Source: Flavobacteriaceae bacterium
GTDB lineage: Bacteria > Bacteroidota > Bacteroidia > Flavobacteriales > Flavobacteriaceae
Length of the DNA: 64,000 nt
Assembly (NCBI GenBank): GCA_947446865.1
Contig: CANFHX010000004.1
Coordinates: forward strand, 5,901-69,900
Direction: 5' to 3'
Part shown: positions 20,382 through 63,534 of the stretch, piece after piece
How positions within the stretch are numbered: position 1 is the first letter of the stretch
How the letters are laid out: the number at the start of each line of letters is the position of its first letter
Notes under the pieces: generated by a model
The model's input: only the letters and a program-made list of their open reading frames with translations
Database searches by the model: none
Told to the model about the DNA's origin: nothing
Made by a program: the position numbers and the translations under genes

Positions 20382-20999
20382 TTAGTTCTTTTTAAAGGTA
20401 CAAAAAATAAAATTTTGAATAGTATTAAATGGTGTTGGATGGTTTTCTGTAAAGCAATTTAGTTTAGTGAAATCAGTTGCAAATATTCTTTCTAATTTAG
20501 ATTCTGAATATTGTGTAATTTCAAGTCCACTGCATTTTAATGGTCCATTTTCGGAGAAGGTTCCTAGGAATAGAAAACCATTTTCGGAAACCGAATTGGA
20601 AACTAATTTTTGATAATTATCTATGTCTTTTTCGGTAGTTAAAAAATGAAAACTTGCTCTATCGTGCCAAACATCAAAAGTGGTTTCTGGTTGAAATTCT
20701 AAAATATCCGAAACGATGAAGGTCACTTTTTCGGCATTGGCCCCTAGCCTATTTTTAATTCTGTTTATAGCATTTTCGGAAATATCCAACAGAAATAAAT
20801 TAGTATATTCTAATTCTAATAAATTATCAATCAGATAACTATCGCCTCCACCAATATCTATTACTTTAGCATCTTTTGGAATAGCATTTTCTATGAAAAA
20901 GTTTATGGATGTTTGTGGTTTGGATTGGTACCAACTCACTTCGGTTTCTTGCTTGGTAGCAAAAACGTTTTGCCAATGTTCTTTTTTGGAGATATTCAT
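20382..20999 (-). CDS. Class I SAM-dependent methyltransferase (TPMT/TehB-like)
   Basis: VIDIGGG motif I, LLDIS, WHDRASFHFL. Confidence 0.85.
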   Translation of the reverse strand: MNISKKEHWQNVFATKQETEVSWYQSKPQTSINFFIENAIPKDAKVIDIGGGDSYLIDNLLELEYTNLFLLDISENAINRIKNRLGANAEKVTFIVSDILEFQPETTFDVWHDRASFHFLTTEKDIDNYQKLVSNSVSENGFLFLGTFSENGPLKCSGLEITQYSESKLERIFATDFTKLNCFTENHPTPFNTIQNFIFCTFKKN

Positions 21000-21049
21000 A
21001 CCTAAATTTTTTTAATTTAAATTACTTATGTCTTGGTTTCTTACTTTTT

Positions 21050-21194
21050 TAGCCCTGATTGAAATGGAAAGCTTTTTGTAAAAGAAAACTAGTTTTTTGT
21101 TTCTAAAAAAAAGCGACCAACGGAAGCTCTTTTTTTAGATTACAAAAACAGTTTTCTTTGCAAAAACTTGGAATGAAAAGCAGGAATAGCTTCT
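21050..21194 (-). repeat. Modular 3'-UTR repeat, copy A (Flavo-1-like candidate) with a long AT-rich central hairpin
   Basis: Minus strand AGAAGCTATTCCTGC ... TTTCCATTTCAATCAGGGCTA. Shares ends with copies at 42398, 50553 and 63168. Confidence 0.8.
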
Positions 21195-21204
21195 GAAAAC
21201 AAGT

Positions 21205-21681
21205 TTAGCAACAACCTGAATTTGGCGTACAACTAGAATTTTCTTTTACCTTCCACTCGCCTATTTTAACTTTCAATTTTTCGAGTGGAATACCACATTT
21301 ATCTTTAGCCAAACAATCGGTTAATTTAGAAAGCAATTGAAAGTTAGTCCCGTCAAATTGAAGATCGAATTTACCGATAGTTTCTTTCATTTGGTACTCG
21401 ACTTCAATTTCTAAATCGGGGATTTGCAGTTTTTCTTCGGATAGTTCGATGATGTGAAGCAATTTTTCGGGATGCAAACGGTGGTCAAAATCGTTAGCTT
21501 CCCAAAGTTGAAAATTTGCCACTTCTTCTGTTCGAACAACCCCACCGCAATCGATGAAATGCTTGGTTATTTTACCAACTTCGGTAACATGAAAATGACT
21601 CGGCACCAATTCGCCATCGGGCAATTGAAAAGCAATTTGAGAAAGTTTTTTTAATTCGGATTTAATTTCGGATAGTTTCAT
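21205..21681 (-). CDS. DUF6428-like hypothetical protein in the ars operon
   Basis: HFHVTEVG, FIDCGG, C-terminal Cys cluster CTPNSGCC. Confidence 0.8.
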   Translation of the reverse strand: MKLSEIKSELKKLSQIAFQLPDGELVPSHFHVTEVGKITKHFIDCGGVVRTEEVANFQLWEANDFDHRLHPEKLLHIIELSEEKLQIPDLEIEVEYQMKETIGKFDLQFDGTNFQLLSKLTDCLAKDKCGIPLEKLKVKIGEWKVKENSSCTPNSGCC

Positions 21682-41026: not shown

Positions 41027-42388
41027 TTGTACGCAATAATAGACATAGAAACTACCGGAGGGCAATTCAACGAAGAAGGAATTACCGAAATCGCTATCTA
41101 CAAATTTGATGGTAGCGAAGTCGTGGACCAGTTCATCAGTTTGGTGAATCCCGAGAAACCCATTCAACCCTTTGTGGTGAAATTAACGGGGATCAATAAT
41201 GCTATGTTGCGTTCGGCTCCAAAGTTTTTTGAAGTTGCAAAACGAATTATTGAAATTACCGAAGGCTGCATCCTAGTGGCGCACAACACCTCCTTTGATT
41301 ACCGAATATTGCGATGCGAATTCAATCGTTTGGGATATGATTTTGTAAAACCAACCCTTTGCACGGTAGAATTATCCAAAAAATTAATCCCAGAACAACC
41401 TTCCTATAGTTTAGGAAAATTAGTCCGAGCACTCGGAATCCCAATGTCCGATAGGCATAGAGCCAGTGGTGATGCACTTGCTACGGTAAAATTATTTCAA
41501 ATGCTTTTGGCAAAAGATACCGAGAAAGAAATTTTAATCGGATTGATAAAAGCTGAAATAAAAAGCGGTCTTTCTCCTAAATTATTAGACATTGTAGAAG
41601 GGCTTCCTAGCAAAACTGGAATTTATTACATACATAATGAAAAAGGCGATTTAATTTATATCGGAAAAAGTAAAAACATAAAAAAAAGAGTCAACCAGCA
41701 TTTCACAGGTAAAAACAGCAAAAGCAAAAAGTTACAATTGCAGGTTTTCACCGTTACTTATGAAGAAACTGGCAGCGAACTAGTGGCACTTTTAAAGGAA
41801 AGCGAAGAAATAAAAATCAACAAACCCATTCACAATCGGGCGCAGCGAAAAAGCATTTTTCAATGGGCGTTGTATGAAGTGCTGGATGACAATGGCTATC
41901 TAAACCTAAAACTTCTTAAAGCCGATGGCCGCAAGAAAGAAATAACGTCCTACACCACCGCTCAAGAAGGAAAAAATGCCCTATTTCGCATTACCGAAAA
42001 ATACAATTTGTGTCAAAAATTAAACGGATTATACGAAACCCAAAACGGCTGTTTTCAGCATAAAATAAACGAATGCAACGGAGCTTGTTTGGGCAAAGAA
42101 ACTCCCGAAGTTTACAACCAAAGAGTCGAAGAATTTCTTACCGAAATGGCATTTGAAAACAACAACATGATTATCGTAGATCGTGGCAGAAAAGTGAGTG
42201 AACGAATCGCAATTTTAATTGAAAACGGCATCTATAAAGGCTATTGTTTTTATGATTTAAATTACCAAATCACCAATGTCGAAGTATTGAAAAACATACT
42301 AATTCCGATGCAAAACAACCGCGATACTCGAACAATAATTCAAAGTTATTTGCGTAAAAATAAAGTAATGAAAATTATAAAGTTTTAA
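41027..42388 (+). CDS. DEDDh exonuclease (DnaQ-like) fused to a GIY-YIG/UvrC-N (Cho-like) nuclease
   Basis: IIDIETTG, AHNTSFD, HRASGDA, GIYYI...YIGKSKNIKKRV, Cys motif C...CFQHKINECNGAC. TTG start. Confidence 0.88.
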   Translation: MYAIIDIETTGGQFNEEGITEIAIYKFDGSEVVDQFISLVNPEKPIQPFVVKLTGINNAMLRSAPKFFEVAKRIIEITEGCILVAHNTSFDYRILRCEFNRLGYDFVKPTLCTVELSKKLIPEQPSYSLGKLVRALGIPMSDRHRASGDALATVKLFQMLLAKDTEKEILIGLIKAEIKSGLSPKLLDIVEGLPSKTGIYYIHNEKGDLIYIGKSKNIKKRVNQHFTGKNSKSKKLQLQVFTVTYEETGSELVALLKESEEIKINKPIHNRAQRKSIFQWALYEVLDDNGYLNLKLLKADGRKKEITSYTTAQEGKNALFRITEKYNLCQKLNGLYETQNGCFQHKINECNGACLGKETPEVYNQRVEEFLTEMAFENNNMIIVDRGRKVSERIAILIENGIYKGYCFYDLNYQITNVEVLKNILIPMQNNRDTRTIIQSYLRKNKVMKIIKF

Positions 42389-42397
42389 TTTTTTTAA

Positions 42398-42479
42398 GGA
42401 GCCATTTCCTGCTATCCGTTACAATCTTTTCTTTTTTTAAAGAAAAAAAAGAAAAGGATTTCCACTGCTATCAGGGCTA
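42398..42479 (+). repeat. Modular 3'-UTR repeat, copy B (Flavo-1-like candidate) with poly-U/poly-A hairpin
   Basis: GGAGCCATTTCCTGCTATCCGTTACAATC-T-rich/A-rich-GGATTTCCACTGCTATCAGGGCTA. Confidence 0.82.
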
Positions 42480-42507
42480 GACCTACCAATCATTAGGCAT
42501 TTTATAA

Positions 42508-50433: not shown

Positions 50434-50552
50434 GGGAGGATATTAAAAAGCAAAGTTCGCAAAGTTTTTGGGATAATTTTTAAAAAATTGAAATGGAATT
50501 AAAGATGGGTGTGTTTTTTATTATCCTAACGAAATTTATTTCCTTTGAAATT

Positions 50553-50657
50553 CTAATTTCACAAAAGACATAACCCGCGTAGCCCTGACAGAAGCAAGCT
50601 ACCTTGTAGCGCGGATGGCAGGAATTGCCTTTACTAAAATGCCTACTGTTTCGCTCC
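50553..50657 (-). repeat. Modular 3'-UTR repeat, copy C (minimal central hairpin)
   Basis: Minus strand GGAGCGAAACAGTAGGCATTTTAGTAAAGGCAATTCCTGCCATCCGCGCTACAAGGTAGCTTGCTTCTGTCAGGGCTACGCGGGTTATGTCTTTTGTGAAATTAG. Confidence 0.85.
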
Positions 50658-50659
50658 CA

Positions 50660-51568
50660 CTAATCTAAAGGGAATTCTTTTCCGTCTTCGGCTAGATGCA
50701 CGTTGGGGAATATGGTTTCTGCCTCATTTTTAAACATTTCAATGCTGCTGTAGCGTGTGGAATAATGGCCTAAAATTAGGTTTTTAACCTTGGCTTTGAG
50801 GGCAATAGTTGCGGCTTGCTTGGCGGTGGAGTGCATGGTTTTTTCAGAAAGTGGTGCTTCGCTTTCTAGAAAAGTGCTTTCGTGGTAGAGGTAATCGACA
50901 TTTTGAATTATTGGAATGATACTCTCGTCGTACTTAGTATCGCTGCAATAGGCATAGGTTTTTACCGGCAGTGGCGGGAAAGACAACTCGGAATTGGGGA
51001 TCACGGTACCGTTGTCGAGGGTAACATCGCCACCAAATTTTATTTTGTTGAAGTATACTTTATCGATGTTGTAATTTTCGATAGTTTCGATATTGAGTTT
51101 ACGTTCTATGTTTTTTTCTTGGAAAAGAAATCCGTTGGTATAGATGCGATGGCTTAATGGGATGGTCTTTACGATTACTTTTTCGTCTTCAAAAACCGTC
51201 ACCGATTCGGTGGATTCTAGTTCGTGGAAATAGAGGTTGTATCCGGTGTAAGAGCCTGAAGCCTTTAATTGCAAAAGGATGATTTCTTTGATACCTTTTG
51301 GGCCGTGAACGTGCAAATCGTTTTCGCGATTGAGCAACATGAAGGTAGAAATTAACCCAATCAATCCGTAAAAATGATCGCCATGAAGATGGGAAATGAA
51401 AATGTGGTTGATCTTGGAAAACTTGATTTTGCTTTTGCGCAATTGCACTTGGGTTCCTTCGGCACAATCAATTAAGAACACTCTGTTTTTTATTTCTAAA
51501 ATTTGGGAGGTTGGGTTGGAGAAGGTTCTGGGTGTTGCGGCATAGCAGCCAAGTATGGTTAGTTTCAA
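50660..51568 (-). CDS. rnz: Ribonuclease Z
   Basis: LTILGC, LIDCAEGTQ, ISHLHGDH, YCSDT, HESTF, MHST, LGHYSTRY. TTG start. Confidence 0.95.
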   Translation of the reverse strand: MKLTILGCYAATPRTFSNPTSQILEIKNRVFLIDCAEGTQVQLRKSKIKFSKINHIFISHLHGDHFYGLIGLISTFMLLNRENDLHVHGPKGIKEIILLQLKASGSYTGYNLYFHELESTESVTVFEDEKVIVKTIPLSHRIYTNGFLFQEKNIERKLNIETIENYNIDKVYFNKIKFGGDVTLDNGTVIPNSELSFPPLPVKTYAYCSDTKYDESIIPIIQNVDYLYHESTFLESEAPLSEKTMHSTAKQAATIALKAKVKNLILGHYSTRYSSIEMFKNEAETIFPNVHLAEDGKEFPLD

Positions 51569-61439: not shown

Positions 61440-63158
61440 ATGCAGCAACTCGATTGGATAGTACTTTCCGTAACCTTATTGTTCATCATTTTATATGGCG
61501 TTTACAAAACACGCGGAAGTAAAAATGTAGAAGAATATATCTTGGCCAACAAAGAAACCCCGTGGTGGGTGGTTGGACTATCCGTTATGGCAACCCAAGC
61601 CAGTGCTATTACCTTTCTTTCCACTCCAGGCCAAGCCTACCACGACGGAATGGGTTTCATCCAATTCTATTTCGGACTACCAATAGCCATGGTCGTAATT
61701 TGCATCGTCTTTATTCCTATTTACCATAAATACAAAGTCTTTACCGCCTACCAATACCTAGAGCAACGTTTCGATTTAAAAACCCGATCCTTGGCCGCAA
61801 TTTTATTCCTAATCCAACGTGGTTTAGCAGCCGGAATCACCATCTATGCACCATCCATAATCCTCTCCACCCTACTCGGCTGGAATTTAACCCTACTCAA
61901 CATCATCATCGGAATATCCGTAATATTCTATACTTTCATTGGCGGAACCAAAGCCGTAAATGTTACCCAAAAACAACAAATGTTTGTCATCCTTTCGGGG
62001 ATGTTTGTCACGTTCTACCTTATCCTTCACATGTTACCAAACGAAATGACTTTTTCCAATGCGCTGCACATTGCAGGAGCCAACGACAAAATGAACATCC
62101 TTGATTTCTCTCTAGATACCGAAACCCGATACACGTTTTGGAGTGGAATCACCGGTGGATTCTTCCTAATGCTGTCCTATTTCGGAACCGACCAAACCCA
62201 AGTCGGGCGCTATCTTTCGGGTAAAACCGATCGTGAAAGCCAACTCGGTTTAATCATGAACGGATTTCTAAAAGTTCCCATGCAGTTTTTTATCCTGCTA
62301 ACAGGAGTAATGGTTTTTGTGTTTTTCCAATTCAATCCGGTGCCGTTAAATTTCAATCCCAATAACAAAACACTAATTGAAAACTCCAAATTCAAAGACG
62401 ATTACAACAAACTCGAAACTAAATTAACCGCCCTAGCCGAAGAAAAAAAAGAATACAACTTACTGTATATTGACCATTTAAATCAAAATTTTGATAATCC
62501 AATTCTCCGAAACAAACTCAAAGAATTGGCAGGAAGAGAAAAAGATTTGCGCGATCAAGCCAAAGAACTGATCGAAAAAGTAGATGTAAAAGCCGAAACC
62601 AACGACAAAGATTACGTTTTCTTGCACTTCATTTTGCACTATCTACCCAAAGGCCTAATCGGACTTCTACTTGCCGTAATCATCTCGGCAGCCATGTCAT
62701 CCTCCGCATCCGAACTAACCGCACTAGCCTCCACCACAGCCATTGACATCTACAAGCGCAACATAAAAAACGAAAAATCCGAAAAACATTTCGTTTACGC
62801 CACCCAATTTTTCACCCTAGGATGGGGAATCATCGCAATACTTTTTGCTTGCGTTTGCATCCTTTTCGAAAACCTAATCCAGTTAGTAAACATCCTAGGA
62901 TCTATATTTTATGGCACCGTACTCGGCATTTTCTTAGTAGGATTTTTAGTAAAATTCGTCAAAGGAAAATCCATATTCTACAGCGCAGCCATCAGCCAAA
63001 TCTCCATCTTTTTCATCTACTACTATTTTATCCACATCTACCCAAGCGGTCAAGAAAAACTAGGATATTTATGGCTCAACTTCATCGGAGCCCTCCTAAC
63101 CTTAGTGCTTTCCATCGTCTTCCAACTCCTCTTAAATTTAAGAAAAAAGACCCTTTAA
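61440..63158 (+). CDS. Sodium:solute symporter (SSS) family transporter
   Basis: GLSVMATQASAITF, YLEQRF, GTDQTQVGRYL, SAAMSS. About 13 TM helices with a long soluble loop. Confidence 0.92.
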   Translation: MQQLDWIVLSVTLLFIILYGVYKTRGSKNVEEYILANKETPWWVVGLSVMATQASAITFLSTPGQAYHDGMGFIQFYFGLPIAMVVICIVFIPIYHKYKVFTAYQYLEQRFDLKTRSLAAILFLIQRGLAAGITIYAPSIILSTLLGWNLTLLNIIIGISVIFYTFIGGTKAVNVTQKQQMFVILSGMFVTFYLILHMLPNEMTFSNALHIAGANDKMNILDFSLDTETRYTFWSGITGGFFLMLSYFGTDQTQVGRYLSGKTDRESQLGLIMNGFLKVPMQFFILLTGVMVFVFFQFNPVPLNFNPNNKTLIENSKFKDDYNKLETKLTALAEEKKEYNLLYIDHLNQNFDNPILRNKLKELAGREKDLRDQAKELIEKVDVKAETNDKDYVFLHFILHYLPKGLIGLLLAVIISAAMSSSASELTALASTTAIDIYKRNIKNEKSEKHFVYATQFFTLGWGIIAILFACVCILFENLIQLVNILGSIFYGTVLGIFLVGFLVKFVKGKSIFYSAAISQISIFFIYYYFIHIYPSGQEKLGYLWLNFIGALLTLVLSIVFQLLLNLRKKTL

Positions 63159-63167
63159 TTTTTTTTT

Positions 63168-63328
63168 AGAAGCGAAACAGTAGGCATTTTAGTAATTGTA
63201 ATTCCTGCCATCCGTTGCAATCTGGCATTGCGAGGAACGAAGCAATCCTATAACAACATAAGCCTATCGCAATGCCAGGATTTCCACTTCTGTCAGGGCT
63301 ACCAAGGTTATGTCTTTGGTGAAAATAG
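63168..63328 (+). repeat. Modular 3'-UTR repeat, copy D, with a nested REP-like hairpin
   Basis: Same leader and tail as copy C. Centre CTGGCATTGCGAGGAACGAAGCAATC...TCGCAATGCCAG. Confidence 0.85.
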
Positions 63329-63534
63329 TTTTTCAAAAAAAAATCCACCATCTTGTCATCCAGATAGGAATCTCAAAATAGATAAGTCAAATTAATCCAT
63401 CTAACAATCCGTTTTAATCTTTGAAAATCCGCGGCAAAATAATATGTACAGAGAAAATAGCAAACCTAAAATTTATTTTGTTTAACTTATTTAATATATC
63501 ATTAAACATTTTGTAGATTTGTAAAAAATTTACA

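Follow-up and report, generated by a model that had tools for sequence, protein, structure and literature searches.

Long-hairpin repeats of ~70-170 bp, such as the ERIC/IRU and Correia (NEMIS) elements, lie in intergenic spacers, where they are co-transcribed with their neighbours in either orientation, and they form size variants through internal insertions or deletions. The Flavo-1 RNA has reportedly been presumed to act in trans. Rfam types it as an sRNA gene (RF01705), and with this label it is among the most abundant Rfam-annotated entries on Flavobacterium genomes. Its published description (Weinberg et al. 2010, PMC2864571) gives no genomic behaviour, and a transcriptome study of F. 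psychrophilum found many Flavo-1 hits outside transcribed regions. REP and MITE candidates are known to abound in Flavobacterium genomes (PMC12306157, PMC11602168). Among the papers searched, we found none linking Flavo-1 to REP or MITE elements or describing it as a repeat.

We have analyzed a stretch of 64,000 nt (hereafter, the window) from a Flavobacteriaceae assembly of 3.07 Mb (G000; 76 contigs, 33% G+C). The original prediction, made from the letters of this stretch, described four copies of a repeat with fixed ends and unrelated centres and likened them to Flavo-1. All four copies were found where they had been placed. On the strand of the upstream gene (hereafter, the reader strand, its reverse complement being the Rfam strand), each copy carries TTCCYGC at one end and TCRGGGCTA at the other. 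The centres are a U/A hairpin of 74 nt, an AT-rich segment of 137 nt, a GCTACC-TTG-GTAGC hairpin of 45 nt, and a segment of 100 nt (GGCATTGCG...). The resemblance among the four copies is far beyond chance. With cmscan, three of them scored 83.4, 63.1, and 58.0 bits against Flavo-1 and covered the full model, the gathering score being 42 bits (Table 1). The likeness was thus borne out for these three, and the fourth copy is a truncated relative, scoring only 26.9 bits because it keeps the outer stems and lacks the inner ones.

Each copy starts 2-10 nt past a stop codon (9, 10, 2, and 9 nt) and reads in the sense of the upstream ORF, as had been noted, with the Flavo-1 model falling on the opposite strand. 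For the copy under study, the Flavo-1 match and the rod into which it folds are on the minus strand, and both neighbouring genes are on the plus strand. Its 5' box starts directly past the TAA stop codon (42386-42388) of an RNase T/GIY-YIG exonuclease gene, and miaA lies downstream. The box of the long AT-rich copy abuts the stop codon (21205-21207) of a DUF6428 gene. The 5' arms of the two remaining copies begin 1 nt past the stop codon, at 50660-50662 for a gene of the RNase Z-like metallo-beta-lactamase fold and at 63156-63158 (TAA) for a sodium:solute symporter gene. The genes adjoining Flavo-1 copies bear no relation to one another. Genome-wide, the 137-nt AT-rich centre is found in five copies and the GCTACC-TTG-GTAGC centre in three. 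The ends and flanking arms of the truncated window copy match those of the other copies.

Table 1. Parts of the four Flavo-1 copies in the window (positions in nt from the first letter of the window)
Feature	Position	Strand	Basis
Flavo-1 hairpin, short U/A-centre type (copy under study)	42401..42482	-	RF01705, 83.4 bits, full model
TTCC...GGGCTA core of the 42401-42482 copy	42406-42479	+	Sequence
5' box of the 42401-42482 copy (T-run and AAGGAGCCAT)	42389..42405	+	Sequence; conserved across copies and genomes
Flavo-1 hairpin, long (137-nt) AT-rich-centre subfamily	21047..21191	+	Rfam, 58.0 bits
5' box of the 21047-21191 copy (...TTTTCAGAAGCTA on the minus strand)	21187..21204	-	Sequence, ORFs
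Truncated member, outer stems and GCTACC-TTG-GTAGC centre	50577..50629	+	Rfam, 26.9 bits; core 50580-50624
Class I 5' arm (GGGAGCGAAAC...GGCATTTTAGTAAAGGCAA on the minus strand)	50625..50659	-	Sequence, nhmmer
Class I 3' arm (GGTTATGTCTTTTGTGAAATTAGAATTTC on the minus strand)	50547..50579	-	Sequence
Flavo-1 hairpin, 100-nt subfamily, core 63202-63301	63197..63304	-	Rfam, 63.1 bits; module ATTGCGAGGAACGAAGCAAT in the centre
Class I 5' arm (T-run, AGAAGCGAAACAGTAGGCATTTTAGTAA...)	63159..63201	+	Sequence
Class I 3' arm (GGTTATGTCTTTGGTGAAAATAGTTTTTCAAAAA)	63302..63340	+	Sequence

The closing stem had been drawn as UCCUG/CAGGG. The stem exists, and its pairing was corrected to CCYG/CRGG with a covarying Y-R pair. 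The original prediction also suggested a covariation check, and the stems do covary: among 40 copies from five genomes, compensatory changes on both sides are seen in 14 of the 21 pairs, all four Watson-Crick types are represented at some pairs, and ~1% of the cells are G-U. Over 186 distinct copies, 94.4% of the 11 outer pairs are Watson-Crick, and the wobbles, counted with one pair of doubtful register left out, amount to 19 for the Rfam strand and 12 for the reader strand. With so few on either strand, G-U asymmetry is no guide to the functional strand, and this approach was rejected. Only the Rfam strand has GNA/GNA in the two 3x3 internal loops, and this strand gives the more stable fold in 75 of 85 copies. 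The whole rod forms on the Rfam strand with both RNA and DNA parameters, and the reader strand loses the outer stem with DNA parameters. The loops being asymmetric, recognition would be strand-specific. Few wobbles together with perfectly palindromic centres would be expected of a DNA-level inverted repeat or of a folded single DNA strand. The purine-rich GNA/GNA loops and the stabler Rfam strand could just as well be explained by selection on a contact between RNA and protein.

The geometry of an intrinsic terminator is absent from both strands, with a T-run preceding the hairpin on the reader strand and an A-run following it on the Rfam strand, and a terminator function was rejected. On the Rfam strand of many copies, a TTCTTTTG(A) box precedes the hairpin by 14-35 nt (for example, the reverse complement of window positions 50547-50560, and L016:1480-1500). 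This box resembles the Bacteroidetes -7 element TAnnTTTG with one mismatch and is poorly conserved, with variants such as TTCTTAGAAA.

The genome-wide count proposed with the original prediction gave at least 72 Flavo-1 matches above the gathering score in G000 (150 of 929 candidates scored), and at least 93 copies after a search for the two conserved ends combined with a hairpin filter. All of these copies are intergenic, ten apparent exceptions having been traced to short ORFs that are spurious or to start codons set too far upstream. A few outer-stem types (CCCTGATAG/..., CCCCGATTG/..., CCCTGACAG/...) combine with at least eight centre types in this genome, comprising short U/A hairpins, centres of 100 nt (23 copies), 64 nt (10 copies), 45, 61, and 137 nt, and several perfect palindromes. 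The small hairpin module ATTGCGAGGAACGAAGCAAT of the 100-nt centre is also found 10 times outside hairpins, and the related module GTCATTCYGACG..GGARG occupies 36 sites outside Flavo-1 hairpins.

Conserved sequence extends beyond the Rfam model. On the reader strand, a T-run and an AGGAGC box precede every copy, and ~70 copies have an additional arm of ~27 nt before the hairpin and another of ~35 nt after it. The arms were rejected as independent repeats, with 62 of the 67 nhmmer hits to the GGAA-end arm and 27 of the 28 hits to the opposite arm adjoining a hairpin. Of the 28 occurrences of the 5' box, 19 have a hairpin after them, and the nine solo ones are all inside ORFs. Therefore, the box is part of the element, and its interpretation as a pre-existing target motif was rejected. 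Given these conserved outer parts and the exchangeable centres, the element is a mosaic repeat, some 90 to 190 nt long, with the Flavo-1 hairpin as its core.

Other small repeats were observed near Flavo-1. A second intergenic hairpin family (TTGTCATYCNGA...GGAATC), present in the window at 63346-63375 and at 36 sites genome-wide, frequently follows class I Flavo-1 units at a short distance. Several Flavo-1 units are directly preceded by a repeated terminator-like hairpin (CCTAACAGGTTT...AAACCTGTTAGG and T-run; C6:58250, C2:130740, and 18 further G000 sites), suggestive of larger mosaic arrays. There were also cases of nesting: one copy (L246:3150-3175, compared with L248) has a ~17-nt extra small hairpin within its left arm, and GTCACCCTGAGCGCAGTCGAAGGG-type modules were seen within the apex in the congener G017 (L002) and in L192/L253. 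In another congener, G008, four Flavo-1 copies (L017, L018, L022, L032) belong to a repeat that measures at least 1.6 kb; they precede 16S rRNA genes by ~770 nt, and their reader strand is co-directional with the rRNA.

We have then examined placement relative to genes, using for G000 a greedy ORF set that covers 90% of the genome. Between same-direction genes, the reader strand was sense in 42 copies and the Rfam strand in 11 (p = 2e-5). Another 15 copies lay between convergent genes, 12 of them closer to the stop codon of the gene to which they are sense, and 19 between divergent genes. The median distance to a stop codon was 38 nt. The split among the three spacer types agreed with the numbers expected from spacer length (52, 13.8, and 21.3; p = 0.83), so that at this level there is no preference for gene 3' ends. 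In 29 of 55 copies, the distance between the 5' box and the upstream stop codon was at most 19 nt, and in 6 of those 29 the TAG of the box itself serves as the stop codon. A terminator-like hairpin with its T-tract directly precedes most of the others, and such a hairpin was seen before about half of the downstream copies.

The orientation was also scored in six congeners, taking the best 30 copies each of G008, G046, G032, and G067 and the best 30 loci of G017 and G014 together. In same-direction spacers, the ratio of reader-sense to Rfam-sense copies was 5:16 in G008, 10:5 in G046, 13:7 in G032, 8:6 in G067, 6:3 in G017, and 5:2 in G014, or 47:39 for the six pooled. The ratio was heterogeneous among all seven genomes (p = 0.002), and when the best 30 copies were likewise selected in G000, the comparison was 17:2 vs 5:16 in G008 (p = 3e-5). 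Thus, the orientation bias is genome-specific and not a property of the whole family, and this difference between genomes agrees with the F. psychrophilum transcriptome study. The single orientation originally noted in the window (four of four) corresponds to a real bias in G000 and does not hold as a general rule. The strict cis 3'-UTR placement raised at the same time had to be abandoned in spite of the 42:11 ratio in G000, because the congeners stand at 47:39, with one reversed, and 19 of the 93 copies lie between divergent genes. A replication-linked orientation was rejected as well, neither local GC skew in G000 nor replichores in three complete genomes showing polarity (leading:lagging 29:27, 37:46, and 25:30, with the origin at dnaA and the terminus approximated as the opposite point).

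The exonuclease-miaA junction was compared in 80 metagenomic contigs and in congeners (79 lineages). The junction is empty in most lineages, with the genes -1 to 40 nt apart. Flavo-1 fills this spacer in 11 of the 79 lineages, or in 13 when two disrupted copies are included. The elements always start right past the exonuclease stop (...TTTTAA) and are always in the reader orientation, with at least eight different centres of 45, 52, 74, 83, 88, 93, 103, 135, or 137 nt. On the miaA tree, the carriers are scattered; at least eight changes are needed, at least six of which are forced by well-supported branches. Eight independent events in a single orientation have a two-sided probability of 0.008. 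The GTCATTTCGACG module is found at the same position in three other lineages.

A second spacer, past the gene downstream of miaA, contains elements in seven contigs. There, they follow a terminator hairpin and T-tract and have the reader polarity with respect to the convergent gene. At these sites, the element either inserts with site and orientation specificity or is tolerated in one orientation only, and the miaA pattern could in part result from selection on the orientation tolerated inside an operon. No close pair of filled and empty junctions that would define the exact ends was found in the metagenomes, where the highest identity over the full-length miaA product is 82% and one partial match reaches 89%. 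In three lineages other than the Flavo-1 carriers, the miaA spacer is filled by the TTGTCATYCNGA...GGAATC hairpin family.

Copy number varies widely within the genus. Among 61 species, it ranged from 0 to at least 94 per genome, and the three congeners with zero hits are about 99% complete; when 150 candidates were scored per genome, 55 to 94 copies were counted. In an order-wide sample, Flavo-1 was present in 26 of 121 genomes and confined to 5 of 18 families. At loci of six congeners syntenic with the four window copies, Rfam detected Flavo-1 in 1 of 17 cases, the other 16 being empty. Between species, elements at non-orthologous sites are up to 91% identical, vs about 70-80% for flanking genes. 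The family multiplies and turns over within genomes, in spacers only. With regard to the locus of the 21050 copy (window 20382-21204; L148, L149), the adjoining methyltransferase gene and the repeat are both missing in G009, and both neighbouring genes are missing in G014. The methyltransferase gene sits elsewhere in other congeners, and this segment may itself be accessory.

We have searched for an enzyme that could mobilize the element. G000 has three matches to Y1 transposases (PF01797), namely an intact IS200-like TnpA of 153 aa, a truncated copy, and a Y1-like domain in a long ORF, and none of them adjoins Flavo-1. Y1 and Flavo-1 showed no association among the 61 genomes (p = 0.32): nine genomes with at least 40 Flavo-1 hits, five of them about 99-100% complete, were without any Y1_Tnp match, and two with a strong Y1 gene were without Flavo-1. 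The NCBIfam RayT model gave 21-30 bits vs a cut-off of 80. The search for a REP-associated tyrosine transposase that had been proposed along with the mobile-element idea therefore turned up Y1 genes without adjacency or co-occurrence, and Y1 was rejected as the partner. The intact tnpA gene is preceded by an array of other hairpin repeats (L013:1100-1400, 1489-1950; C7:23700-24560), consisting of CTGGACTNAAGTCCAG... and tandem GTTCCGTAGGAACGAT...GCAATGGATTT.AATCCGTTGC, which may be the REP-like partner family of this TnpA and distinct from Flavo-1. The third match (45 bits) is embedded in a reading frame exceeding 1000 aa (L015; C32:2401-2721), an unusual fusion, and similar long frames are present in G062 and G038.

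Other traces of mobilization were sought at the flanks and on possible vehicles. Direct repeats of at least 8 nt were not locus-specific, own flanks matching over a mean of 7.46 nt vs 7.48 nt for exchanged flanks, and a long target-site duplication was rejected, although short ones of 2-5 nt may exist. One G008 copy is bracketed by a 15-nt direct repeat (14/15 identical, containing AAGCCAATTG; L016:1478-1492 and 1593-1607), which was not seen at other copies. No insertion sequence sharing an arm was found in G000, where 69 of 69 occurrences of the left-arm motif lie inside short elements. Carriage by phages or plasmids was rejected, as IMG/VR (searched with an exact pattern), INPHARED, and PLSDB gave no Flavo-1 match among viral contigs, phages, and plasmids; in these searches, low-complexity filtering may hide the centre, whereas the arms stay visible.

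Two rival explanations place the function of the hairpin in RNA. If it were a cis-acting 3'-UTR RNA, co-transcribed with the upstream gene and stabilizing or processing the 3' end of its mRNA, one could account for the sense excess in same-direction spacers of G000, the position of 12 of the 15 convergent copies, the short median distance to stop codons, the single orientation of 13 of 13 miaA-locus elements, and the same lean in five of the six other genomes (42:23). We nevertheless regard this explanation as unlikely, as about a fifth of the copies (19/93) lie between divergent genes just as spacer length predicts, about half of the downstream copies sit past a terminator-like hairpin and T-run, G008 is reversed with significant heterogeneity between genomes, and positions differ between species (1/17 loci kept). 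Moreover, the mRNA-sense strand is the one with the weaker fold, which loses its outer stem with DNA parameters, and wobble pairs are nearly absent. The same near-absence of G-U pairs weighs on trans-acting small RNA genes, each with its own promoter on the Rfam strand, as reportedly presumed by Rfam and Weinberg et al. (2010). Strong covariation, the better fold of the Rfam strand with both internal loops purine-rich on that strand only, and the weak -7 box match upstream of the hairpin in many copies (TTCTTTTG vs TAnnTTTG) are compatible with such genes. A copy number that spans 0 to at least 94 per genome, the lack of a conserved locus, a hypervariable apex, an A-run rather than a U-run after the hairpin, and many F. 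psychrophilum hits outside transcribed regions make them distinctly unlikely.

Two further rivals treat the hairpin as DNA. In REP/RAYT or IS200/IS605-type systems, hairpins are single-stranded DNA substrates of a genome-encoded Y1 (HUH) transposase, and Flavo-1 shares with them a conserved unpaired TAGC 5' of an imperfect palindrome, a high copy number, an extragenic location, and the lack of a long target duplication, in a genome that encodes one intact IS200-like TnpA and one truncated copy. This remains a slim prospect when confronted with the absent Y1 association (nine Flavo-1-rich genomes without Y1_Tnp, two strong-Y1 genomes without Flavo-1), the RayT scores far under the cut-off, the lack of leading/lagging bias in three complete genomes, and the fact that the G000 tnpA gene is flanked by another hairpin repeat. 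Integron-type attC recombination sites at the ends of gene cassettes are barely credible. Their likeness to Flavo-1 is in form only (fixed ends, variable centre, unpaired bases, a position after ORFs, one orientation), whereas the window copies are 8-21 kb apart, the family is spread over most contigs with no cassette arrays, the neighbours are housekeeping genes in conserved order, miaA and pdxH among them, and the ends are unlike the core sites RYYYAAC/GTTRRRY.

Our preferred reading, to which we assign a probability of about 0.55, is that the window copies are members of a high-copy mosaic intergenic repeat of Flavobacteriales, a REP/BIME-like mobile hairpin with polar, T-run-proximal insertion. 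Flavo-1 often lies directly 3' of a T-rich gene end, be it a stop codon in ...TTTTAA or a terminator T-tract, with a fixed polarity to the T-run. Of the two possibilities put forward in the original prediction, a structured RNA with a variable stem and a non-autonomous mobile element with orientation-specific insertion, the first holds for the structured hairpin with its variable apex and not for its strict cis 3'-UTR placement. The second is the best fit, with 0 to at least 94 copies per genome, 16 of 17 syntenic loci empty, and the miaA spacer filled repeatedly and in one orientation, and it is much better supported than the 3'-UTR reading.

The element is built, on the reader strand, of a T-run and AGGAGC box, an arm of ~27 nt in most copies, the hairpin, and a second arm. 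The hairpin is an imperfect one, with fixed outer stems, two conserved 3x3 internal loops, and at its apex a freely exchangeable module, either a perfect palindrome or another mini-repeat. Polar, site-preferring insertion, rather than a 3'-UTR function, would be what makes the G000 copies co-oriented with the upstream gene. As to the hairpin, it would be kept as a substrate, recognized as folded DNA or as an inverted repeat by a mobilizing or recombining machinery, and effects on neighbouring transcripts would be secondary, as for REP/BIME, ERIC, and Correia elements. Neither the Y1 survey of 61 genomes nor the search for arm-sharing insertion sequences gave a candidate enzyme, and the reversed orientation in G008 is not predicted by a simple model of insertion after terminator T-runs, which counts against the preferred reading. 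So do the lack of a locus-specific duplication of at least 8 nt, of close filled and empty junctions, and of copies on phage, viral-contig, and plasmid records, and the alternatives named above for the GNA/GNA loops, the Rfam-strand fold, and the miaA pattern.

We also entertain, tentatively, a more specific possibility, namely that Flavo-1 is an undescribed structure-dependent integrating element that enters with fixed polarity 3' of T-rich ends, relies on an enzyme other than Y1/HUH, hits the same spacer repeatedly in independent lineages, and offers its apex as a landing pad for mini-repeats. If Flavo-1 is a proliferating mosaic repeat, as in the preferred reading, its sRNA annotations and the resulting counts of "sRNA families" would be misleading, its copies would be useful markers of strain-level genome dynamics, and recurrent polar insertion at one site would point to an as yet unidentified targeting mechanism in Bacteroidota.

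Compared with known systems, the window copies share with published Flavo-1 (RF01705; PMC2864571) the sequence and structure family, the covarying stems, and the internal loops, three of the four being above threshold. What goes beyond that description is the dispersed repeat nature, the arms outside the model, the exchangeable centres, the truncated relatives below threshold, and the polar placement at gene ends, with the modelled strand mostly antisense to flanking genes in G000. Integron attC sites are likewise defined by structure, in that their ends are fixed, their centre varies, conserved unpaired bases set the strand polarity, and an ORF lies directly upstream, but Flavo-1 is not arrayed, has no core-site consensus, and has syntenic chromosomal genes as neighbours. 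With ERIC and Correia elements, it has in common the long-hairpin spacer repeats and the size variants. It differs from them in that its arms are not simple terminal inverted repeats, in its conserved asymmetric loops and direct-oriented outer boxes, and in that no TA or other target duplication was detected (with a test for at least 8 nt) and no parent IS shares its ends. REP/BIME elements of Enterobacteria and Pseudomonas are also extragenic imperfect palindromes in tens to hundreds of copies, often at gene ends, with a conserved unpaired motif at the hairpin foot and mosaic mixing with other short motifs, whereas Flavo-1 has no co-occurring Y1/RAYT, a longer hairpin (45-140 nt) with a modular apex, and no GTAG motif. 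The features tested do not support membership in the RAYT, IS200/IS605, DDE-MITE, or attC class. The best comparison for Flavo-1 is with the REP/BIME, ERIC, and Correia-type repeats.
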